Assembly: GCA_018435125.1 (NCBI GenBank)
Contig: JAHDNZ010000036.1
Span: forward strand, 31,014 to 95,013
Direction: 5' to 3'
Length of the DNA: 64,000 bases
Origin: Bacillota bacterium
GTDB taxonomy: Bacteria > Bacillota > DTU065
Made by a program: the position numbers and the translations under genes. Under the pieces are notes generated by a model. That model was given only the letters and a program-made list of their open reading frames with translations. It did no database searches and was not told where the DNA came from. Positions 2 through 59,538 of the stretch are shown here, in pieces; within the stretch, counting starts at the first letter, position 1, and every line of letters begins with the position of its first letter.

Positions 2-523
2 GCCATAGAAGACCTTAAAGATCTGATTTTTAAAGAATGCGGCCCCGAAGCTATTGCCGATATTAAAAACGCCTCCGAAAGTTTAAATGAAATACGGCAG
101 TTTACTGATATCTTTCTCAAGATACTAGGCGTTTTGGCTTTTTTTGCTGTAGTTGTCAGTTCAATTGGGATACTCAGTATTATGCTGGTAAATATCTTGG
201 AACGCACACGAGAAATAGGTATAAGACGTTCTTTGGGAACTAGTCAAAGAGCTGTCTTTTTTCAAATACTAATTGAATCAATGGTTCTTTCTTTAGGTGG
301 TGGTATATTGGGGGTAATCTTGGCCTTTATAATCACCTGTCTGTTCAATGTCTCTAATATCTTTGCTGTCTTTAACGAAATTTTTGCCTTACCAAATTTG
401 GGATTCAACATCGAAGCAGTTTTGGTGTCCTTAGCTCTAAGTTGTGTTGTCGGTGGTCTTTTTGGCATCTACCCTGCCTACCAAGCTGCTAAACTACCAC
501 CGGTTGAAGCCTTACAAGAATAA
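2..523 (+). CDS. ABC transporter permease, FtsX/MacB-type, C-terminal part (5' end lies outside window)
   Basis: Open frame runs from window edge with no stop. C-terminal 4-TM FtsX-like sequence with ERTREIGIRRSLG motif typical of MacB/FtsX permeases. Followed in operon by HlyD and ABC ATPase genes. Confidence 0.7.
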   Translation, partial: AIEDLKDLIFKECGPEAIADIKNASESLNEIRQFTDIFLKILGVLAFFAVVVSSIGILSIMLVNILERTREIGIRRSLGTSQRAVFFQILIESMVLSLGGGILGVILAFIITCLFNVSNIFAVFNEIFALPNLGFNIEAVLVSLALSCVVGGLFGIYPAYQAAKLPPVEALQE

Positions 524-542
524 TAAGGTTAGGAGGATAATA

Positions 543-1838
543 ATGCCCAAAGATAAGCCTATAATCAAAGAAAAGCCACATAGTAAAAAAACCCAGCGTG
601 AGCTGGGCCTAACCTGGTTTGTCCTTATTATTTTGGCCTTTTTAATCGGTGTCCCGGCTTATATATTTTTACCTAAGCATAAAACCTATAAGCTGGCCAA
701 TTATACCTACGCTACCGTGGGTGAAGCAACTTTTCGCGAGCTTATTCGGGGAACCGGCTCCTTAAAACCTCAAATCGGTCTTGAGATAACCAATAAATAT
801 AAAGGCATAGTTAAATCAGTCTCAGTTGAGTCTCTTTCTGATGTAACCAAAGGTGATCTCCTGCTTAAGATAGACTCACCCGAACTAAACAATAGCCGAA
901 AAGAACAAGAAGAACTTTTAGTCAAGGCTCAAACCGAACTGGAAAAAGTACTGATCGATAGGGAGCTGGAGCTGCAAAAACTTAACTGGTCAATCAGAGA
1001 ACAGCAAAAGGTAGTAAATGATAACCAAGACACACTTGAAGAGAAAGAACTGATGTATAAATTAGGTACTGTCAGTCAAAAAAGTTTAGAGGAAGCCAAA
1101 CTTAATGTGTTAAACAGTCAAGAAGAATTAGCTATGCGTGAAAAAAACCTAGCCAAAGTCGAAATCACTACCTCACTTGCTGTCGATACAGCTAACAAAC
1201 AAATAAAAACCATTACCGAAAAAATCCACGAGATCGAAAAAAGCATCCGAGAAAACACTTATACTGCCCCCATCACCGGTAAAGTCCTTGAAGTTTTCGT
1301 AAAACCGAGTTCGGAAATAAACGCCGGAACAACTCTCTTAAAAATAGTCAGTGTGGATGATCCTTATGTGGAAATAAAAATTGCCTCCCAAGATGCTGAA
1401 CGCATCGAAGAAGGTTTGCCTGCTCTGTTAAAAATAGCCGGACGCTCTCACCATGGAGAAGTTGCTAAACTCTCTTATGCCACTAGTCTAGAGCAAGGCA
1501 TTCCCTACCTATTGGCAGAAATTGTTTTTATAAACAATCCGGGTTTTATTCTACCCCATACCGAGGTTCAAGTAGAGATTGAAACTTCAAAAAGAGACCA
1601 GGTAGTATGTCTACCCCGCGGACCCTTTTTATCAAGCGGACAAAGTATGTTTGTCTATAAAATCGAAGGGGCTAAAGCATACCGTACTGATATAAAGTAC
1701 GGTGGATATGATGGTAACCTCATTGAAATCAAAACCGGTCTAAATCCCGGTGATAAAATTATCACCAGTTCTTATGAGGCTTTCAAGGATGAAAAAGAAA
1801 TCATTTTAAATCCTGAAGGAGGCAGAGCAGATGATTGA
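543..1838 (+). CDS. HlyD-family membrane fusion protein (periplasmic adaptor of tripartite efflux pump)
   Basis: ATG at 543 is preceded by AGGAGG at 531-536. One N-terminal TM helix, a long coiled-coil segment and a C-terminal beta-barrel-like region. Operon position between permease and ATPase. The ORF-track start at 444 is rejected because it overlaps the permease and has no RBS. Confidence 0.75.
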   Translation: MPKDKPIIKEKPHSKKTQRELGLTWFVLIILAFLIGVPAYIFLPKHKTYKLANYTYATVGEATFRELIRGTGSLKPQIGLEITNKYKGIVKSVSVESLSDVTKGDLLLKIDSPELNNSRKEQEELLVKAQTELEKVLIDRELELQKLNWSIREQQKVVNDNQDTLEEKELMYKLGTVSQKSLEEAKLNVLNSQEELAMREKNLAKVEITTSLAVDTANKQIKTITEKIHEIEKSIRENTYTAPITGKVLEVFVKPSSEINAGTTLLKIVSVDDPYVEIKIASQDAERIEEGLPALLKIAGRSHHGEVAKLSYATSLEQGIPYLLAEIVFINNPGFILPHTEVQVEIETSKRDQVVCLPRGPFLSSGQSMFVYKIEGAKAYRTDIKYGGYDGNLIEIKTGLNPGDKIITSSYEAFKDEKEIILNPEGGRADD

Positions 1839-2556
1839 ACTTAAGGACATTAAGAAGATTTATCAGTTAGGCCATAACAAGATTGAGGCCTTAGGCGGAG
1901 TTTCTTTGAAGATCAACCGCGGAGAAATGCTGGCTGTTATGGGTCCTTCCGGCTCCGGAAAATCAACTTTACTCCATATTCTAGGTTGTCTGGATCTCCC
2001 GGAAAGTGGTCAATATTTGCTTGAAGATACTGATATTACAAACCTCAGTGATAAAGAACTATCTCGTATTCGCAATGAGCACTTTGGCTTTGTATTTCAG
2101 GCCTATAATCTGCTTCCAGAGCTAAAAGCCTGGGAAAATGTAGCTTTACCGATGGTAATTAACCATGTTAAAAAAGCTGAACGTAAAGAACGTGCTGTAG
2201 CCCTGCTGCATAAAGTTGGCCTAAAAGAGCGTCTGAATCACTTCCCCAACCAGCTCTCCGGCGGTGAACAGCAAAGAGTAGCTATTGCCAGAGCTTTAGC
2301 TAATGATCCGGACCTCATTTTGGGTGATGAACCCACGGGTAACCTCTCTACTGTTCAATCTGACGAAATCTTAGAGATGCTTTGCCAGTTAAATGAAGAA
2401 GGCGTAACTGTAGTTCTGGTTACTCACGATTCAAATGTCGGAGCCAAAGCTAAAAGATTGGTAACACTTCAAGATGGTTTATTAGTACGTGATGTCCCTA
2501 TTGAAAAACGCCACTCTGCAGAGTACATTACAACCTTGTTGCAAGCTGCCAATTAA
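1831..2556 (+). CDS. ABC transporter ATP-binding protein (MacB/LolD-type ATPase)
   Basis: Walker [13 protein letters not shown] signature [15 protein letters not shown], Walker [13 protein letters not shown]-loop THD. GGAGG RBS 8 nt upstream. 8-nt overlap with the HlyD stop. Confidence 0.9.
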
Positions 2557-2582
2557 AACAACTACTAACGGAGGTTTGGCTT

Positions 2583-3659
2583 ATGAAAAAAGCTTATCAG
2601 CTAGTATCTTTAATCTTCACTGTTGTCTTTCTTTTCTCGGCGATTGCCTTTTCGGAGGTAAAGCCTCTTTCCCTTTCAGAGTTTACTCAGCTGGTATTAA
2701 ATAATAGCCCTGAATTGAAAAAGACTAAGATCACCTTGGAAATAAAAGAGATTGACTATACCAAAGCAAAATATCAATCCCATAACCTAGCCTTAAAAAC
2801 TCTTAATGAAAAAGAAACTACTCTCTCTTTGGCTAAAGAAACAGTTGCTTCTACTAAAACACAGGTTATCCTAGATGCTAGTGAACAGCTCCTAAGTTTT
2901 TTGGATGCTAAAGCTAATTTACTGGAAAAAGAATTGCTCCTTGTAAAAAGTCAAAGAGATCTTACCTTATTCGAGTTTAGATTTGAAAAAGGTTTAATTT
3001 CAAAATCTGAACTTGAAAGCCATAAAGAACAAGTCAATCAAAACGAACAAGGCAAAAAGCAAGCAGAATACAGTTTAAAACTTCAAGTTATGAAGCTCAA
3101 CCACTTAGCCGGTCTACCTCTAGAAGATGAACTTGAGTTAGATATACCTCTCCTACCCCTACCTAAATTACCTGATAAAGATGAGCTTTACAAGGTTTTA
3201 CTCCAAGGAAATACTGCTCTAAAGCAATTGAAAAGCCAAATGGATGAAGCATCTCTGGCTTTAGAACTGCTTCATCTCCAACATGAAGCCGCCTTGACCA
3301 TAAGAGAAAAAGAGCTCCAACTAGAGGAATTGCAGCTTGATTTTAAAACTAAAGAAAGTGAAATTCTCTTTTTAGCTGAACAAGAATATGCTAACCTTTT
3401 GGAACAACTAAGAAGAACCGAATCCTTTCTAAAAGAAATAACCGCTTCCCTCTCTAAAGTAACAGAAGTTACAGAGCAGTATAAGTTAGGTCTAATTGCC
3501 CAAAATGAGCTGGAAGAAGCAAAATCCCAGGTTAAACTAACAGAATTAAAGGCTCAAAAAGGGGTTTTTGCCCTTACCATTGCACTTGGACATTTAGGGC
3601 TCCTTCCTGAAAGCTCTTCTTTAGATAATTTTTCCCTAGCAGGTGGGCCTAATGACTAA
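2583..3659 (+). CDS. TolC-family outer membrane efflux protein (short)
   Basis: Signal peptide (MKKAYQLVSLIFTVVFLFSAIAFS). Extensive coiled-coil/alpha-helical repeat character typical of outer membrane efflux proteins. C-terminal ALTIALGHLGLL resembles the TolC repeat ending. GGAGG RBS. Confidence 0.55.
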   Translation: MKKAYQLVSLIFTVVFLFSAIAFSEVKPLSLSEFTQLVLNNSPELKKTKITLEIKEIDYTKAKYQSHNLALKTLNEKETTLSLAKETVASTKTQVILDASEQLLSFLDAKANLLEKELLLVKSQRDLTLFEFRFEKGLISKSELESHKEQVNQNEQGKKQAEYSLKLQVMKLNHLAGLPLEDELELDIPLLPLPKLPDKDELYKVLLQGNTALKQLKSQMDEASLALELLHLQHEAALTIREKELQLEELQLDFKTKESEILFLAEQEYANLLEQLRRTESFLKEITASLSKVTEVTEQYKLGLIAQNELEEAKSQVKLTELKAQKGVFALTIALGHLGLLPESSSLDNFSLAGGPND

Positions 3660-4923
3660 ATTAAAACCCCAATCAATTCTTAGCTTTACAATAGTTGTTT
3701 TAATTTGTTTTTTGTTATTTCCAGGTTCCAAAATCCTCGCTCTTACCTTTCCCGAAGCATTTAACCTGGCCAAAAGTAATTCTAAGGGGCAGCTTAGTCA
3801 ACTTGAAACCGAAATAGCTCGACTCTCTCAAGCTCCAACTTCATTTATAGGTAAACTGTTAGCCACTACTGAGATTAACCTAAAAGCAGATACCTCGGGC
3901 AGTAAAGATAGTACTAACCTAAGTTTATCCGCCTTAAGCCAGGCCGATAATTTAACCCTGGCTTCAATCACCTATAACCCTCTGACTTCCGGGATTTCTT
4001 TTGCTCTATCCATACAACTCTATCCCCTAAAAACCAACGCCTCCTTAGCCAAACAAAAGCTTTCCCCAGATGAACTGGAAATAAAAATCCACACAGCCAG
4101 ATTGTTTTTTGCGGTATTTATTGGCCGCCTTGAAGTACCTTTAATAGAAAAAGACTGTCAGCTAAAAGAAGAGCATTTATCCTTACAGAAAGAAAAATTT
4201 TCTTTAGGTTTAATCTCTTTTGCGGAGGTAAAAAATGCCGCTAAGAATTCGAGTACTCTGCAAACGGAACTGAAATTAGCTAGAGAAAAACTAGTCAAAG
4301 ATGAAAATGCTTTAAAAAAACTGCTCGGGCTGTCTAACTTAAATGATCTTGACTTACAATTAGAACAGAATTGGCCACATATAGAGCAACTAGAGATTAA
4401 TCCTGAGCTTATAGCGGCCTTAGATCTACACCTTTTACAAGCCCAATCCGAATTAAGCCAGCTGGAAAAACAAAAAAAACCGCAAGTTTTTGCCAGCTTA
4501 AATCTCAATCATTTACCAAAAAACCAAAATTTTTTAACTCAGATTAGTTTTAGTCACAATCTTTATAAACCTCAACATACAAAACAGATAGCTCTTGCTA
4601 AACTAGAAGTTACAAAGCAAGAAATTCTTCTTAACGAAAAAAAAGAGGCTTTTTATGAGGAGGTTAAGGAAGCCCTAAACAGTTATAAAAAGGCTCAAGA
4701 GACCTGGCAAAATGCCGCATCTTCCCTTGCAGAAACCACTGAACTACTCGATTTAGCCAATACAGGTGCTTCTTTGGGTATCATATCTGAAGGAGAAATT
4801 CAAGAAATCGCTCTCGAATATGAGTGGGCTAAGGTTAAGGTAAGTAAAACTGCCTTAGATTGTCTACTTAGTTACTTTAATCTGCAAAAATATTCTGCTT
4901 CTCTTCCAGAGCTTAGCCTGTAA
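3652..4923 (+). CDS. TolC-family outer membrane efflux protein (second tandem copy)
   Basis: ATG at 3652 with AGGTGG just upstream. The track's GTG at 3643 sits inside that RBS. Signal peptide, helical repeat composition. Overlaps the previous gene's end, so the two are translationally coupled. Confidence 0.5.
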   Translation: MTKLKPQSILSFTIVVLICFLLFPGSKILALTFPEAFNLAKSNSKGQLSQLETEIARLSQAPTSFIGKLLATTEINLKADTSGSKDSTNLSLSALSQADNLTLASITYNPLTSGISFALSIQLYPLKTNASLAKQKLSPDELEIKIHTARLFFAVFIGRLEVPLIEKDCQLKEEHLSLQKEKFSLGLISFAEVKNAAKNSSTLQTELKLAREKLVKDENALKKLLGLSNLNDLDLQLEQNWPHIEQLEINPELIAALDLHLLQAQSELSQLEKQKKPQVFASLNLNHLPKNQNFLTQISFSHNLYKPQHTKQIALAKLEVTKQEILLNEKKEAFYEEVKEALNSYKKAQETWQNAASSLAETTELLDLANTGASLGIISEGEIQEIALEYEWAKVKVSKTALDCLLSYFNLQKYSASLPELSL

Positions 4924-13344: not shown

Positions 13345-13597
13345 AGCTGATCCTCCCTTCTAGAAAGGTTACTATAACTTATGCTGCGTTTTCAAAATCG
13401 CCATGAACTATTTAACTCATCTTATTGTTTTTTTAAAACCTGCCATCGAGTTCTAGAAGAGATTACCGGATTTCTAAAACTGAAGTTAGTACCTTTAATG
13501 TTCTGCTGATTTTCTCAAGACCTTTAACCTTGAAAAAACACAACTTTTGCAGGTCAAATTGTTTTTATGTCCAAATCCATCTACAGGAGGGAGCCAA

Positions 13598-14422
13598 ATG
13601 AAGCTAGCAGAGATAGTTGTGGAAAATGTAAGGAGTTTTAAAAAACTATTAAAAATTGACTTTACCGATCACTACACCGGTTTACCTAATGATCGTTTGG
13701 TTATTGTAGGTACTAATGCCTCTGGTAAAACTACACTTTTAGAAATAACTATTTCACTCTTAAAAGCTTTTTATCATGAGCAAGATTCTCTCTATAAGGA
13801 ACTTAGCTCAGCCGGAGTAGCTACCAAGGTGGTTTTTCTAGATCAAAACGATAACCGGCTTGCTCTTGAACTTAAAGATGGCAGGCTTTCACTAGAAGGT
13901 AAGAGTGAGCTTTTACCCTTTTATTTGTATTTCCCGGCGGAGCGCTATTTTTCTGAGCCAGCTCAATCAGAGCCAATAAAAATAAACCCTTGGGGCTATG
14001 AGTATAAAAACGGAGAAGAATACTTTACTAACTATTTAGATAATAGCTTTTCTGAGTTAGCCACCCGTTTTTTTTCAGGACGTATACTGGCTAAAACAGA
14101 TGATCAGTACACACTATCGGCTTCTGCCAACGATCCCACCCCGATACCATTAAAAAGACTACCTTCTGGCGAAAAGCAAGCCTTAATTTTGCTTACGATC
14201 ATTGCTAAGCATCTTAAAAGGAGATCGCTGGTGATGATTGATGAATTTGAACTTAGCCTTCATCCTACAGCTCAAAGAAAGCTTTACTATCTTCTCAGTG
14301 CTTATCTTAAAGAGAGAGATTCGCAACTAATTGTGGCCACTCATTCTCTAGAAATTGTCCGTGCATCCCTGGAAACAGAAGTTTTTAGTCTAGACGAAAT
14401 CTTAGGGGGGCTAAAGACATGA
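13598..14422 (+). CDS. AAA_21/ABC-type ATPase (AriA/AbiLi-like), short form, about 274 aa
   Basis: GGAGGG RBS 6 nt before ATG 13598. RecF/SMC-like N-terminal strand MKLAEIVVENVRSFKK, Walker A GTNASGKTT, signature-like LPSGEKQAL, Walker B/H-loop VMIDEFELSLHP (the DEPE..LHP hallmark of AAA_21). Confidence 0.65.
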   Translation: MKLAEIVVENVRSFKKLLKIDFTDHYTGLPNDRLVIVGTNASGKTTLLEITISLLKAFYHEQDSLYKELSSAGVATKVVFLDQNDNRLALELKDGRLSLEGKSELLPFYLYFPAERYFSEPAQSEPIKINPWGYEYKNGEEYFTNYLDNSFSELATRFFSGRILAKTDDQYTLSASANDPTPIPLKRLPSGEKQALILLTIIAKHLKRRSLVMIDEFELSLHPTAQRKLYYLLSAYLKERDSQLIVATHSLEIVRASLETEVFSLDEILGGLKT

Positions 14423-15273
14423 GCTACTTATCATTAGATCAACTGCTCCTTAGAATCCGCTCTGGGAAGGGACTAGCTATAGTCATTGAAGGCATTAAAA
14501 ACGGTGATGATGAGTGGGTATACTCCCAGTGGTTTGGTAATTTAGCTCATTTAGTAACTTTTTACCCCCAGGATGGTTATAGCCGTGTCTATGATGCGGT
14601 TGAAAATCTCAGAAATAAAAGCCCTCACAAACTTATTGCCGGCATTATCGATCGTGACTTCGCAACTGAAATTGAAGTTAAAGCACAGTTTGAAGCAGAT
14701 TATGCGCAACATGTCTATCGCACTAAACGTTATACCTTAGAAAATTATCTTTTAGAACCGGAAGGTTGGCTAGAGATAGCCTCTCTTTTTTGGCGTCATA
14801 AACATCCTGTGGGTTTTCGAACTTTGGAAGAATGCAGCCAAACTATTGAGTTGGTTTTTAAATCATTTTTACCTGCTGCAGCTTATAATTGGCTTGTCTG
14901 GGATTTAGGGCAAAAATACGGGCCCAAATATTATCTGAATTATAAAGACACTCCTAATCTAGATCCGGAAAAACTTTATTTTGATCTTCGTATCTACTGC
15001 CAAAGAGAAGGTCTGCCTAGTCCTGATGAATATGAATTAAGACTTAATCTCCTTCGAAGGAAAAAAGAGCTCTGGCATCAAAAGGTTAGTGGCAAAATGG
15101 TTTTTAATTATCTGATCGAAAACATTCCGGTTCCTAGAAGCCGCCCGGATAAACATCTTTTTATAAACTATTATGTATCCAGAACGGAAGCTCCAAAAGA
15201 GCTAAACCGCCTGGTTAATTTTCTGATCACTAAATATCTTAAGGAAGCATCTCTTGCCAAGAGTGCAATCTAG
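14419..15273 (+). CDS. DUF4435/Toprim-like protein (AriB/OLD-C-terminal-like), putative nuclease partner
   Basis: ATGA overlap with the ATPase stop. Acidic motifs VIEGIKNGDDEWVY and GIIDRDF are compatible with the Toprim E...DxD pattern of DUF4435. About 284 aa, matching the typical size of that family. Confidence 0.45.
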   Translation: MSYLSLDQLLLRIRSGKGLAIVIEGIKNGDDEWVYSQWFGNLAHLVTFYPQDGYSRVYDAVENLRNKSPHKLIAGIIDRDFATEIEVKAQFEADYAQHVYRTKRYTLENYLLEPEGWLEIASLFWRHKHPVGFRTLEECSQTIELVFKSFLPAAAYNWLVWDLGQKYGPKYYLNYKDTPNLDPEKLYFDLRIYCQREGLPSPDEYELRLNLLRRKKELWHQKVSGKMVFNYLIENIPVPRSRPDKHLFINYYVSRTEAPKELNRLVNFLITKYLKEASLAKSAI

Positions 15274-17576: not shown

Positions 17577-18335
17577 TTACTTTTTGATGCTTTGCCTTAG
17601 AATCTCTCTTTTGGCAATATTTAAAAATTGAGTATTTGTAGGACAACAATTACTGGCTAAACTAGTAGGAAGTATCGAAAGAATATTCCTACTATTTGTC
17701 TTCCAGGCAGAATGCAATGCGCTACGGATAGCAGCTTCTACATTAACAGGTGAAGTATGATATTTTTTAGCTAAATTAGGATAAAGAGACTTAGTTAGTC
17801 CATCTATAAGATAAGCTTTGTTGCTTAATATTAAAAGCAAAGCTTCTTTGAGATAACTGTGGCCTTTTAACTGACTCTTAATCCCTATGTTTTTCAAGAA
17901 CTCTTCTACGCAGTATGTTAGTGTATGATCATCGACTACTATACCTATCAGACTTTTATCAAGGACAATCTCTTCTTTAAAGGCACAAACCTCTCTGATA
18001 GTTTTTTCTAAGGCAGTTAAATAAAAGGGCTTTACTAAACAATAGCTAGCACCCTTTTTTATAGCTGTTTGTAAAATTTCTTCTTTGGAAAAAGCAGTGA
18101 TTACTAAAACCTTAGGTAGTTCGCTGCTTAAAGTATCCAATACCTCTAGTCCGTCTAATATGGGTAAACCCAGATCTAGAATTAAAAGTTCCGGTCTTAG
18201 TTCTCTTACTTTTTTAACTGCTTCTCTACCATCATGACCTACCCCGATTACCTCAAAATCAGGCTGAAAGGAAAGATACTGCACCATGATGTCACAAAGA
18301 GCATGATTTTTATCAACTACTAAAATAGAGACCAT
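17577..18335 (-). CDS. spo0A: Sporulation master regulator Spo0A (receiver domain plus Spo0A_C DNA-binding domain)
   Basis: Receiver domain with conserved Asp residues (VVDKN...LILDLGLP). C-terminal Spo0A-specific motifs LKGHSYLKEAL, LTKSLYPNLAKKYHTSPVNVEAAIRSALHSAW and CPTNTQFL. Start set at ATG 18335 (AAGGGGG RBS) rather than the track's 18368. Confidence 0.8.
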   Translation of the reverse strand: MVSILVVDKNHALCDIMVQYLSFQPDFEVIGVGHDGREAVKKVRELRPELLILDLGLPILDGLEVLDTLSSELPKVLVITAFSKEEILQTAIKKGASYCLVKPFYLTALEKTIREVCAFKEEIVLDKSLIGIVVDDHTLTYCVEEFLKNIGIKSQLKGHSYLKEALLLILSNKAYLIDGLTKSLYPNLAKKYHTSPVNVEAAIRSALHSAWKTNSRNILSILPTSLASNCCPTNTQFLNIAKREILRQSIKK

Positions 18336-18385
18336 AGATAACCCCCTTAATTTGAAACTAAAGTCCAATCAGATTGTTTGAGCTG

Positions 18386-55213: not shown

Positions 55214-56167
55214 TTATTCGCTATCAGTTTTATCTGTCCTGCTTAATTGGGAAATTTTTTCAGCCTCTTTTTCAATTTTTTTCAATCGATAACTGACAGC
55301 CGATTTACTTATACCTAGTAACTGGCCAATTTTTAAATAACTTGCATCGAAATTTTGCTTACGTATCTTAGCTACCTCTTGGAAACTTTTTGGCATTTTA
55401 GACAAGATTCCTTGTGCATCTAATGTTTCTATAGCTCTTAGTTGTTTTAGCGAAGCTGTTACGGTCTTATCTATGTTAGCGTCTTCACAATTTACCAAGC
55501 GATTGACATTATTTTTCATCTCTTTTATAATGCGAATATTTTCCATCTCCAAAAGCGATCTGTGAGCTTGAGTCATGGTAAGGAAAACAGCAATCGATTC
55601 ACCGTCTTTAAGATAAAGAAGGTATTCATTGCGTCTTTCAACGAGGCCAAATTTAAGTGGTGGAGCAATTTCATTTAAGTATTCTTGCAAACGTTCAGCA
55701 AAAACCTTATCAGCGATTCTAATCTCCAAATGATAGGTTTTTTCGGGATTTTGCAGTGAACCACTACCTAAAAACAAGCCTCTTAAATAGGAGCGGCGGC
55801 AACATTCTTCCTGTAACTTAGGTACATTTTTATCAAGAATATTCTCAACCACAGTCTGAGAAAAGACACTATCTATTTGTCCAACTTCGCTTCTTATCCG
55901 ATAGAGATTGCGTTTTTTTAATTTAGTTTCTTTCTCGACCACCAGCATTGTTTTGCCTTGGCTTAACTCTTTATATAAAGAAACCACTTTCCTGGCCAAA
56001 GCCGCATTTTCGGTTTTTATTTCTAAGGAAGGACCTTTAGTACTGATATTCAACACTCCTGCAGTCTGAATTAGTCCATACAGTTCGGCTTTTTTACACT
56101 CTTTATGAGATGGTTTTACACGTACCAGCTCACTTTTAACTTTCTGAGAAAAATTCACTAAAGCCAT
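55214..56167 (-). CDS. whiA: DNA-binding protein WhiA
   Basis: 317 aa. LAGLIDADG-like N-terminal domains, C-terminal HTH (ISKSAVSYRLKKI). Confidence 0.9.
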   Translation of the reverse strand: MALVNFSQKVKSELVRVKPSHKECKKAELYGLIQTAGVLNISTKGPSLEIKTENAALARKVVSLYKELSQGKTMLVVEKETKLKKRNLYRIRSEVGQIDSVFSQTVVENILDKNVPKLQEECCRRSYLRGLFLGSGSLQNPEKTYHLEIRIADKVFAERLQEYLNEIAPPLKFGLVERRNEYLLYLKDGESIAVFLTMTQAHRSLLEMENIRIIKEMKNNVNRLVNCEDANIDKTVTASLKQLRAIETLDAQGILSKMPKSFQEVAKIRKQNFDASYLKIGQLLGISKSAVSYRLKKIEKEAEKISQLSRTDKTDSE

Positions 56168-56250
56168 ACTTAATCTCCTTCCTTACTATCTTAACCAGTG
56201 ATAAAATTCTACAACTATAAATAAAAGCCTGCTTAAAACGCAGGCTCGGT

Positions 56251-56796
56251 TTAATCCTTGAAAGACTCAGGGATATTACGTTTGTACCAGATTAAAATTC
56301 TAGGAAAGATTAAAGCTGTAAATAAGATGTTAATAAAAGACTTTAAGAAATTAAAGGGAATAATCGCCGGTACTAAAAGCTTAAGCACAGCATCGCGAGG
56401 CATACCGTAAAAGATAGGATTTAACCAAACATTTAAAAGCGGCATCACTATGGTCATCGCAGTAGCTCCTAAAACCAAACCTCGACGAGCACTTTTAATT
56501 GTACCCTTATAAATAGATGCCGCCACTACAGATAAAATACCTGTTGCTATGATATGCATTATTACTCCAAAGACTGGGTTTAGATTAGCAACAAAAAGCC
56601 CAAGTAAAATGGAGATGGCTACAGTCATACCCATGGCTGCCAGTGGTCCAAAAAGCAGACCTCCAATTAAAATAGGTACATCACCAGGTTCATAGATTAA
56701 AAAAGGGGCTGTTGGAAATGGAATCTTAATCAATAAGGTAAGCACTGCACTAAGCGCAACCAAAACCGACATAACCGCAAGTTTTTGCAATTTCAT
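56251..56796 (-). CDS. ribU: ECF-transporter S component, riboflavin-specific (RibU-like)
   Basis: 181 aa, 5-6 TM helices. EPGDVPILIGGLLFGPLAAMG matches the RibU FSDVPALIGGFLFGPLAG signature. Immediately preceded by an FMN riboswitch. Confidence 0.7.
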   Translation of the reverse strand: MKLQKLAVMSVLVALSAVLTLLIKIPFPTAPFLIYEPGDVPILIGGLLFGPLAAMGMTVAISILLGLFVANLNPVFGVIMHIIATGILSVVAASIYKGTIKSARRGLVLGATAMTIVMPLLNVWLNPIFYGMPRDAVLKLLVPAIIPFNFLKSFINILFTALIFPRILIWYKRNIPESFKD

Positions 56797-56820
56797 TTTT
56801 TAAGACCTCCTAACAGGAAA

Positions 56821-56985
56821 CGCCCTGAAGGAGATCCTTCAGGGCGTAAAAAGCATTTACTTTAATGCCGATCTTTCTATCATCCGGACTTTACCGTCGG
56901 TCCTGGAATTGCACCAGGTCAGCTTGCGCTCGTGGACTTTTACCACCGGCCAGGAATTTCACCTTGCCCTGAAAGATCATTTATG
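56821..56985 (-). promoter_or_regulatory. FMN riboswitch (RFN element) with downstream 11-bp expression-platform hairpin
   Basis: Minus-strand RNA reads GAUCUUUCAGGGCAAGGUGAAAUUCCUGGCCGGUGGUAAAAGUCC...CUGGUGCAAUUCCAGGACCGACGGUAAAGUCCGGAUGAUAGAAAGAUC. P1 is GAUCUUUC/GAAAGAUC (56971-56978 with 56870-56877). The core is near-identical to the B. subtilis ribD RFN consensus (GGGCAGGGUGAAAUUCCCGACCGGCGGUA...GACAGUGAAAGUCUGGAUG). The hairpin CGCCCUGAAGG-aucu-CCUUCAGGGCG (56821-56846) is followed by UUUCCUGUU and then the ribU RBS. Confidence 0.85.
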
Positions 56986-57036
56986 GGGTTTTCCTGTTTT
57001 TTATTATACCTAACTTTACCAAAAAAATCAATCTAA

Positions 57037-58386
57037 CTAACGTCTTTTTAACTGTTTTACCTGTCTGGGACGTTGTTTAAAAGTCACATTGGCAAGGACA
57101 CTCATTATCGCAGAAGCGAGCTTGCCTGGATCGTGTCTGGCCAGATCATTGCTGTTTGCCAGTTCTTTGGCTATAACCTTAACTCCAAATGCTTCCAGTT
57201 TTTTGTTATCAACCGCAACTGGGGCAGCGCCTTGTCTTTCATAACGTTCCAAAATTGTGCGGTCAAAATCGCCAATATTGACAAGCACATAATCTATAAG
57301 CCTTTGAGGCTCTATATGTCTGAGGATTGTTTTGAGGTGATCGCTTGCCGAATAACCTGTGGTTTCTCCTGGCTCTGTCATCACATTAACTACATATATT
57401 ACCGGAACATTGTTTCTTTCAATAGCCTCAACAATACCCGGAACAAGGAGATTAGGCATAATTGATGTATAAAGGCTACCCGGGCCCAAAACAATGAGAT
57501 CTGCCTTTATAATGGCCTTAATGGCTGATGGATTAGGCTTGCAGTTAGGAGGTTCTAACTCCACTTTATGAATTTTTTCACCTTGCGACGAAATAGCTGA
57601 TTCGCCAAGAACTTCTGTGCCGTTTTCATAGATGGCTTTGAGGTTGATATTATTTAACGTTGAGGCCATTACCTGTCCTCTGACTTTTAAGACGCGGCTA
57701 AATTCCTGTACAGCTGTTTCAAAGTCTCCTGTAACCTCACTCATGGCTAAAATAAAGAGATTGCCAAAATTATGGCCTTCTAAACCTGCTCCACCAGTGA
57801 AGCGATAATCAAAAAGTGCATTCATTAAAGGTTCTGTGTCAGCTAATGCCAATAGACAGTTTCTTATATCTCCAGGCGGAACAAGGCCCCACTCGCGACG
57901 AATTCGCCCTGAAGAGCCACCATCATCAGCAGCTGTAACAATTGCAGTCAGATTGCTAGTATAGTTTTTTAAACCTCTAAGTAGGGCTGAAAGACCGGTT
58001 CCACCACCTATAACCACAATCTCAGGTCCTTGAGAGAGAAGCCTTCTTTTGTATAGCCCGTCAGCCATTTCGCCTAAATCAGCTTTTGTCATGGTCCCAA
58101 AAAGATGATTGATTGCTTTTTGAACCCCCAGCATAACTAAAAAAAGTCCACTTGCAAATAAGACAATAGCTAAAATATAGGAAATAAAAGGTGGTATTAA
58201 TAAAGCCAACTTACTCATTAGATAGCCAGAATAATCTTTAGGCAAAGACATTGAAGCAAGGAGAACAAGCATTGCTAAAGCAACGCTAGCCATGATTACA
58301 CCAAAAGCGCTAAGAATTATATAGCGTTTTACTCTAATCCCTGGATAAAACCAGCGTAAAAGTTTGTGCTTTGCCTTTTTATCCAT
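57037..58386 (-). CDS. yvcK: Gluconeogenesis factor YvcK (CofD-like) with an about 115-aa N-terminal membrane extension
   Basis: Core IVVIGGGTGLS...DGGSSGRIRRE motifs. Two to three N-terminal TM helices. Start ATG 58386 (GGAGTGA RBS) overlaps the rapZ stop as ATGGATAA. The track's 58422 start is rejected. Confidence 0.85.
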   Translation of the reverse strand: MDKKAKHKLLRWFYPGIRVKRYIILSAFGVIMASVALAMLVLLASMSLPKDYSGYLMSKLALLIPPFISYILAIVLFASGLFLVMLGVQKAINHLFGTMTKADLGEMADGLYKRRLLSQGPEIVVIGGGTGLSALLRGLKNYTSNLTAIVTAADDGGSSGRIRREWGLVPPGDIRNCLLALADTEPLMNALFDYRFTGGAGLEGHNFGNLFILAMSEVTGDFETAVQEFSRVLKVRGQVMASTLNNINLKAIYENGTEVLGESAISSQGEKIHKVELEPPNCKPNPSAIKAIIKADLIVLGPGSLYTSIMPNLLVPGIVEAIERNNVPVIYVVNVMTEPGETTGYSASDHLKTILRHIEPQRLIDYVLVNIGDFDRTILERYERQGAAPVAVDNKKLEAFGVKVIAKELANSNDLARHDPGKLASAIMSVLANVTFKQRPRQVKQLKRR

Positions 58387-59257
58387 TATCATCACTCCGA
58401 CTGGCAACATCTCTGTGTTCAACTACAGAATTATATCCTCTTTGCCTTAGAGAAACACCTAACCAGTCAGCAACAGAAACAGACCTATGTTTACCTCCCG
58501 TGCAACCGATAGCAATGCTAAGTTGGGCTTTACCTTCCTTGATGTAATAAGGTATTAAAAATAGGAGAAAGTTATTTAACTTATTCATGAATGTATTAGT
58601 GATGGGATATTTTACTAGATAATCCTTAATAATCTGCTCAGAACCAATATGGTTCCTTAATTCATCTATCCAATAAGGATTGGGTAAAAATCTCACATCA
58701 AAAACTAAATCTGCATCCAGAGGGAGACCATGTTTATATCCAAAGGAGATAATATTGATAAGCATCCGATCTTTCTCATCCTGTTCTAGCCATTTAGCTA
58801 GGACATTTTTAAACTCACTAATCCCTAAAGAAGATGTATCAATGATCTTGTTGGCTTTGCTTTTAATCTCTTGCAGTTTCTTTTTTTCCAGTTCTAATCC
58901 CTCTAGGATTCCTCCTTCAAGGCTAAGAGGGTGACGTCTGCGACTTTCTTTATAACGCCTAACCAACACTTCATCGCTGGCTTCTAGAAATAGAATTTCG
59001 TAACCAAAGCCCATTTCCTCGAGGGTTTGTAAAGCCTTGGCCAAATGATCGAAAAACTGGCCTCCGCGTACATCGCTAACCAAGGCTACTTTATTAATAT
59101 TGCCATTTGCTTGAGCTACTATTTCTGCAAACTTAGGGATTAATAGAGGTGGCAAGTTATCAACACAAAAATAGCCAAAGTCTTCTAAAACTTTAGCAGT
59201 TAACGATTTACCCGCGCCAGATAAACCTGTTACAATAATAAAATTTTTGCTCTCCAA
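58379..59257 (-). CDS. rapZ: RNase adapter protein RapZ (YvcJ)
   Basis: Walker A TGLSGAGKS at the N-terminus when started from TTG 59257 (AGGAGGG RBS, 6-nt spacer). The ATG at 59302 would add 15 residues with no RBS. Confidence 0.85.
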   Translation of the reverse strand: MESKNFIIVTGLSGAGKSLTAKVLEDFGYFCVDNLPPLLIPKFAEIVAQANGNINKVALVSDVRGGQFFDHLAKALQTLEEMGFGYEILFLEASDEVLVRRYKESRRRHPLSLEGGILEGLELEKKKLQEIKSKANKIIDTSSLGISEFKNVLAKWLEQDEKDRMLINIISFGYKHGLPLDADLVFDVRFLPNPYWIDELRNHIGSEQIIKDYLVKYPITNTFMNKLNNFLLFLIPYYIKEGKAQLSIAIGCTGGKHRSVSVADWLGVSLRQRGYNSVVEHRDVASRSDDNG

Positions 59258-59538
59258 CTTAATCCCTCCTCGTAGCCAAAAAGCTGTCCTTAACTTTACC
59301 ATATGCCAAAAGTCATATAAGGTGCTAAATCACTCCGTCTGTTTTTAACTTCTAAGAGTAATCTCATTGATTTTGAATTTTTAAGGTTTTTTTACTGTTT
59401 GTCCAGTCTAGAAATGCTACCCTAATCTATTTGAATGCTCAGTGAAGATGTTAAAATAAACTCTGCTTAAGCTGTTTATAGCATCTTTGGCTGTCTTAGT
59501 TTACAGATTAAAAAACTTATGGTTAAGACTAGCTTAGC

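Follow-up and report, generated by a model that had tools for sequence, protein, structure and literature searches.

The stretch of DNA analysed here (the window, 64 kb) carries rapZ, yvcK and whiA co-oriented on the minus strand, followed downstream of whiA by cggR-gap-pgk-tpi-pgm-eno (Table 1). The corresponding yvcJ-glmR-yvcL cluster is highly conserved, and in Enterococcus faecalis it is co-transcribed and autoregulated by YvcL (PMC10986989). The window keeps the order and the common orientation of these three genes, but they are not contiguous. In contrast to the E. faecalis cluster and to the contiguous rapZ-yvcK-whiA genes of an outgroup locus (L131), where yvcK and whiA are 12 bp apart, yvcK and whiA in the window lie 869 bp apart and are parted by a promoter-like site, a riboswitch, ribU and two terminator-like hairpins. 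A reading made from the sequence alone (the sequence-only reading) had proposed that a riboflavin-uptake module was inserted between yvcK and whiA, and the comparison with the outgroup and with the published cluster agrees with this.

Table 1 Features of the yvcK-ribU-whiA region of the window
Feature	Coordinates	Strand	Evidence or remark
rapZ	58379-59302	-	NF003828, 347 bits
yvcK/glmR	57037-58422	-	TIGR01826, 389 bits
Intergenic region with riboswitch	56797-57036	-	between yvcK and ribU
Promoter-like site: -35 TTGATT (57031-57026), 17-nt spacer, -10 TATAAT (57008-57003)	57003-57031	-	10/12 consensus matches
5' leader element z, CAGGAAAACCCC	56985-56996	-	complementary to GGGCGUUUCCUG (56813-56824)
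FMN riboswitch aptamer (RFN element, RF00050)	56868-56980	-	115.4 bits; 109-118 bits at orthologous loci
Linker: small hairpin GGCAUU/AAUGCU, then UUUUUA	56847-56869	-	length differs among lineages, about 25-70 nt
Switching strand c, CGCCCUGAAGGAUC	56833-56846	-	pairs with a (antiterminator) or d (terminator)
Putative terminator hairpin A, 12 bp, loop AUCU	56820-56847	-	terminator scan, folding; 11-12/12 pairs in 8 lineages
Predicted SD-sequestering hairpin B: AGGAUCUCCU (56838-56829) with AGGAGGUCUU (56811-56802), inner stem CAGG/CCUG	56802-56838	-	9-10/10 outer pairs in all 9 lineages
Degenerate U-tract UUUCCUGUU, 9 nt between hairpin A and SD	56812-56820	-	sequence
ribU, predicted riboflavin-specific ECF S-component, 181 aa	56251-56796	-	Pfam, PDB sequence matches, AlphaFold/Foldseek
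Putative intrinsic terminator of ribU: GAGCCUGC-loop-GCAGGCUU, then UUAUUUAU	56225-56247	-	terminator scan; conserved
whiA	55214-56167	-	TIGR00647, 227 bits

A search with cmscan against Rfam 15 identifies an FMN (RF00050) match of 115.4 bits (E = 3.4e-26) in the ribU leader, where the gathering score is 66.2 bits. The match spans model positions 1-138 of 138 without truncation, and all upper-case consensus nucleotides of RF00050 are identical in the aptamer. The sequence-only reading had recognised here a textbook RFN element with GAUCUUUC (56978-56971) and GAAAGAUC (56877-56870) as the strands of P1, and both the element and its P1 are confirmed by the match. According to the structure line of the RF00050 alignment, P1 closes a six-stem junction with two pseudo-symmetric halves. 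These halves, GGUGAAAUUCC...GGUAAAAGUCC and GGUGCAAUUCC...GGUAAAGUCC, correspond to P2/P3 and P5/P6, so that their repeat-like appearance reflects the internal pseudo-symmetry of the aptamer, as had been supposed, and not a separate repeat. Stems P1-P6 are reproduced in the minimum free energy (MFE) fold of the leader, which has a z-score of -4.9 relative to dinucleotide shuffles.

Within the 5' leader, 72 nt separate the aptamer from ribU downstream, and the aptamer is followed by a platform with mutually exclusive folds; the ribU Shine-Dalgarno (SD) sequence, AGGAGG, is at 56811-56806 and the AUG at 56796. The promoter-like site begins 5 nt past the yvcK stop codon, and its TTG..N..TATAAT blocks are conserved in the leader alignment of nine lineages. 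Its sequence suggests that it functions as a promoter.

Distribution of the unit among Bacillota

In every clade member examined, RibU homologues that are 62-91% identical are encoded immediately upstream of whiA in a rapZ-(yvcK)-FMN-ribU-whiA-cggR-gap context, with an RF00050 match of 109-118 bits at each locus. Two further clade members, reached via WhiA, also have ribU. WhiA identity among clade members is 63-95% and then falls abruptly, from 63% to 42%, indicating an isolated deep clade. Lineage by lineage, RibU and WhiA identities fall broadly in parallel (91/94-95, 86/89, 73/71, 69/69, 66/63, and 62/67%), a pattern in favour of a single ancient acquisition with vertical inheritance thereafter. 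The named public genomes of the clade are 'Firmicutes bacterium UBA4881' and 'Clostridia bacterium DTU065', and a scan of JGI metagenomes returned only four close relatives, all of them duplicates of lineages in the set. DTU065 is a GTDB class that is sister to Limnochordia (PMC11456536). The insertion between yvcK and whiA is thus seen in relatives as well; it is not peculiar to this genome but fixed in the whole deep clade and inherited vertically.

In the DTU065 lineage (L001-L004, L012, L093, and L094), unlike in the yvcJ-glmR-yvcL cluster, yvcK is absent from the locus. Here about 240 nt of spacer come after rapZ (e.g. L001 4565-4802), then the FMN-ribU unit and whiA, and tblastn identified no yvcK remnant in the rapZ-riboswitch spacer of L001. 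The YvcK/GlmR homologue of the window is extended at its N terminus by a hydrophobic stretch of about 130 aa ahead of the CofD-like domain (Pfam residues 135-421 of 461). Its clade relatives have proteins of 429-445 aa versus the usual 317-aa form in the outgroup L131, and the extension suggests a membrane-anchored variant.

Outside the clade, an FMN aptamer is found less than 400 nt upstream of ribU in 68 of the 80 GTDB species RibU loci, so the FMN-ribU unit is standard. The same pairing of an FMN aptamer with a solitary ribU directly downstream is known from Bacillus subtilis ypaA and from Halanaerobiales and Clostridia (PMC4418817); those units lie outside rapZ-yvcK-whiA, unlike that of the window. 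The yvcK-ribU-whiA placement is absent from 77 of the 80 loci, with a rapZ/whiA context only in two clade members. A Syntrophothermus MAG (L064) with the order rapZ-yvcK-ORF-ribU was considered as a possible further case and rejected, as it has no FMN aptamer and no whiA in the remaining 600 bp. In this MAG yvcK is followed by a gene of about 180 aa (3428-3974) and then by a ribU homologue (39% identity) that has no riboswitch; the neighbourhood is independent and superficially similar. In another outgroup locus (L132, 2103-3941), yvcK and whiA are kept apart by an 87-aa ORF and a 463-aa Beta_elim_lyase protein; such unrelated cargo indicates that the yvcK-whiA junction has been interrupted more than once. 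Some other Bacillota have tandem ribU duplicates (L013 4001-5106; L046 3749-5392), and in L046 each ribU copy has its own FMN aptamer.

The locus therefore combines a very well-known kind of unit, ribU behind an FMN riboswitch, with a genomic position specific to the clade; it is real and ordinary in kind. It has little importance beyond annotation, and Rfam and Pfam would annotate it correctly. A literature search on ribU with either whiA or yvcK turned up no account of this arrangement. The unusual placement serves as a synteny marker throughout a deep, uncultured lineage of Bacillota (DTU065/UBA4881-like) and did not arise recently. In this lineage the rapZ-yvcK-whiA operon, normally transcribed as one and autoregulated by WhiA, is physically broken up, with one sub-lineage lacking yvcK at the locus, which implies that whiA is transcribed on its own in the clade.

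Alternative pairings in the ribU leader

The leader can form the mutually exclusive pairings a:b, a:c, c:d, and d:e. Strand a is the aptamer 5' strand GAUCUUUCAGGGC (56978-56966), which comprises the 5' P1 strand and J1/2, and strand c lies past the linker, itself possibly a pause or spacer element. Conserved pairings were counted in an alignment of nine orthologous leaders, which also has invariant blocks outside the aptamer. Each of the nine lineages keeps 13/13 pairs of the a:c helix, and covariation is seen at the terminal pair (C-G in six lineages, U-G in one, and U-A in two), a count that is descriptive only, like the other pair counts given here, since nine lineages with mostly invariant columns and few changes have little statistical power for covariation.

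Hairpin A, the GC-rich hairpin that the sequence-only reading had noted between aptamer and ribosome-binding site, is present 9 nt from the SD. Its arms, CGCCCUGAAGG and CCUUCAGGGCG, form 11 bp (12 with the flanking A-U), including 8 GC pairs, and pass the terminator scan. A G-C pair is changed to A-U in lineage L008 and to G-U in L126, and the hairpin is broken in L001. The tract after hairpin A consists of three U, then CC, then UGUU, whereas ribU leaders of other clades have stronger, UUUU(A/U)-rich tracts; termination efficiency at hairpin A is uncertain because of this poor U-tract. The loop and 3' arm of hairpin A together are also the first strand of hairpin B and double as an anti-SD. 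The sequence-only reading called the hairpin a terminator; it is terminator-like and more than that, the anti-SD made up by its loop and 3' arm being invariant. The free energy of hairpin B is -19.8 kcal/mol in the window and -17 to -21 kcal/mol among the lineages.

A further conserved element, z, lies in the 5' leader ahead of the aptamer, and its complement spans the last part of the terminator 3' arm and the U-tract, with which it pairs in folds where a:c is forced. Element z is conserved in eight of the nine lineages and is absent, along with the terminator, in L001. In L008, the z:u pairing has a compensatory change from AGGAAA/UUUCCU to AAGAAA/UUUCUU. Element z appears to act as a further clamp on the antiterminator state.

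Folding of the leader gave both the terminator (c:d) and the antiterminator (a:c) states that had been anticipated. When the nascent RNA extends just to c, a:c gives the MFE fold (-54.0 versus -47.4 kcal/mol), and once d is made, P1 plus the terminator is favoured (-66.5 versus -58.5 kcal/mol). This order is the pattern of a kinetic OFF switch, and the computed energies suggest transcriptional control of this type.

We consider it very probable that this is a canonical FMN riboswitch that turns off ribU when flavin is plentiful, in a self-contained unit that has a sigma-70-type promoter of its own and was acquired ancestrally between yvcK and whiA. FMN binding, termination, and riboflavin transport at this locus are what we infer from sequence, comparison, and folding. 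During transcription, strand c would emerge just past the aptamer. Without FMN, c would displace the 3' P1 strand and pair over 13 bp with the 5' P1 strand and J1/2, destroying the ligand pocket. The 5' leader element z would then clamp the other terminator arm and the U-tract, and with no terminator and an open SD, ribU would be expressed. Bound FMN would lock P1 and J1/2 during the short interval before d appears, so that c would pair with d to form the 12-bp terminator hairpin and transcription would stop at the U-tract. The anti-SD in the loop and 3' arm of hairpin A would offer a second, translational route of repression, predicted to be dominant where the terminator has decayed (L008 and L001/DTU065).

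The main output in the window organism may also be translational, with FMN freeing c and d for hairpin B, which would bury the SD, and with hairpin A as a folding intermediate. The outer stem of hairpin B (8-10 bp) is invariant across nine lineages, including GUCUU past the SD, which has no ribosome-binding role. Its stability across lineages, and the degenerate U-tract of hairpin A, are also consistent with a translational output. Hairpin B is the MFE in L008, and in L001 (DTU065), where the terminator and the 5' clamp have decayed, a sequestor of 10-14 bp is the only hairpin. In four lineages the SD is less accessible when P1 is forced (0.19-0.33) than when a:c is forced (0.55-0.72). However, in the window-type leader the platform fold with hairpin A exceeds that with hairpin B in stability by about 6 kcal/mol, and hairpin A forms first. 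Further, hairpin A has the compensatory changes in L008 and L126, and z, the clamp of its 3' arm and U-tract, is conserved only where hairpin A exists. The computed SD accessibility in the full-length window RNA is nearly equal in the two states (0.62 versus 0.64), so any regulation must be kinetic. A mainly translational output in the window organism thus appears unlikely, though well worth considering, and the main output is more likely to be termination, with possible reinforcement by partial occlusion of the SD. The reverse logic, in which FMN would activate ribU because, once P1 is formed, the hairpin A state leaves the SD formally free, was rejected as the primary reading on account of the U-tract after hairpin A, the nascent energetics, which fit an OFF switch, and the P1-formed state of L001, which buries the SD.

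Kinetic control of B. subtilis ribD was reportedly described by Wickiser et al. in 2005, and the nascent-chain energetics of the window unit also fit such control. The window unit shares the RF00050 aptamer with the riboswitches of B. subtilis ribD and the Lactococcus lactis rib operon. In models of these two, the antiterminator is a long-range one and the 3' P1 arm serves as anti-antiterminator (PMC8966005), and in the window, too, the terminator hairpin's 5' arm can pair long-range with the 5' side of the aptamer. Unlike those riboswitches, the window unit controls a transporter and not biosynthesis genes, a very compact platform spans the roughly 72 nt between its aptamer and the AUG, its U-tract is degenerate and 0 nt from the SD region, it has an extra 5' leader clamp on the 3' arm of the terminator, and its terminator doubles as an anti-SD. 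The ribU leaders of Halanaerobiales and Clostridia have the same GCCCUG...CAGGGC terminator, mimicking CAGGGC of the aptamer; in contrast to the window, their terminators have canonical U-tracts and lie 30-60 nt ahead of the SD. Pairing of the terminator 5' arm with the 5' rather than the 3' P1 strand was considered as a possible unusual architecture, an idea ruled out both by this shared design and by the published B. subtilis and L. lactis models.

For B. subtilis ypaA, SD sequestration is said to be the output (Winkler et al., in 2002), and it is also the predicted sole output in the DTU065 lineage. The folding models thus point to a platform with two overlapping outputs, terminator and anti-SD, in a family that would span transcriptional to translational control, with the orthologous leaders forming a natural series along which one and the same riboswitch moves from termination to SD sequestration as its output. 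A stronger version, which we regard as doubtful, is that this is a true dual-output FMN riboswitch, that the orthologous series records its stepwise conversion, and that residual read-through past the ribU terminator ties whiA to flavin supply. If so, one 32-nt segment would combine the roles of terminator and anti-SD and would also be what a two-part 5' clamp pairs with, and the series from the window type through L008 to L001/DTU065 would capture a transcriptional-to-translational conversion in a single vertically inherited locus.

Transcription of whiA and identity of the transporter

Directly 3' of ribU, a GCCUGC...GCAGGC stem and T-run are present in all eight lineages compared, the DTU065 lineage included. 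With its own promoter and its own terminator, ribU would be a monocistronic unit. The sequence-only reading had raised both read-through into whiA and insulation of whiA by the riboswitch terminator. The present evidence favours insulation, which would be due mainly to this second terminator (56247-56225) and not to the riboswitch hairpin. A riboswitch that couples whiA, and perhaps cggR-gap-pgk, to flavin by read-through, so that the insertion rewired a cell-division/glycolysis operon, would be in line with the co-directional ribU and whiA genes, which are 83 nt apart, with the arrangement being fixed across the clade, and with a scan that found no consensus sigma-70 promoter on the coding strand of the 83 nt between them. 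However, the canonical GC-rich hairpin and T-run past ribU are conserved, even in the DTU065 lineage, which makes flavin coupling of whiA unlikely; further, a motif downstream of this terminator could be a weak whiA promoter. We therefore think it quite improbable that whiA responds to flavin in this way. The motif, semi-conserved TTGTAG(A/G)A...N15-16...TAAGAT-like (56168-56224, minus strand), was noted by inspection in several lineages and fails the consensus promoter scan; it could alternatively be a WhiA autoregulatory site.

The 181-aa product of ribU matches PF12822 (69.1 bits, cut-off 30.7) and PF07155 (33.4 bits, cut-off 26.7). Among solved structures, a sequence search at E <= 1 returned only 3p5n (Staphylococcus aureus RibU, 1.5e-11) and 5kbw and 5kc0, both Thermotoga maritima RibU. 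The AlphaFold model has a pLDDT of 90.7, and its best Foldseek matches are T. maritima RibU (TM 0.83/0.88, rmsd 1.9 A) and S. aureus RibU (0.79/0.85), while other S-components (ThiT, FolT, BioY, and PanT) reach a TM of at most 0.73. Family, sequence, and predicted fold agree that the gene downstream of the aptamer encodes a RibU-type ECF S-component, as the sequence-only reading had it.

Variant FMN riboswitches of subtypes 1 and 2 are defined by G-to-A substitutions at ligand-contact nucleotides, and subtype 1 can precede COG3601 (RibU-family) genes (PMC6298564). A rare FMN-like variant with altered ligand specificity, or an S-component with a substrate other than riboflavin, is nevertheless very hard to reconcile with the locus: no RibU-specific NCBIfam model matched and the only hit, to a FolT-family model, is sub-threshold (23.3 bits, cut-off 60), but the RibU structure match is well above those to the other S-components, the PF07155 score exceeds its cut-off, and all highly conserved consensus positions of the aptamer match, with the J1/2 GGG and other conserved G residues kept and the variant-defining G-to-A changes absent, as judged by alignment inspection and not by position mapping to 3F2Q.

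A shared energising module is common among ECF transporters. This organisation has been described for RibU (PMC4418817). No EcfA/A'/T module and no rib biosynthesis genes were found within the 64-kb window, which fits a solitary S-component using a shared module encoded elsewhere. The single ABC ATPase in the window (1831-2556) belongs to an efflux cluster.

Elsewhere in the window, two overlapping ORFs (13547-15273, plus strand) resemble a PARIS-type anti-phage pair. The first, of 291 aa, matches Pfam AAA_15/AAA_21 and PADLOC AriA (8e-24) and is shorter than the matched AriA profiles; the second, of 284 aa, matches DUF4435 and PADLOC AriB (9e-10). A Spo0A homologue is encoded at 17577-18368 on the minus strand. 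The efflux cluster (444-4923, plus strand) has the order HlyD - ABC ATPase - OEP - OEP (TolC-like), and the presence of outer-membrane efflux proteins in a Firmicute fits the placement of the clade beside the diderm Limnochordia (PMC11456536).
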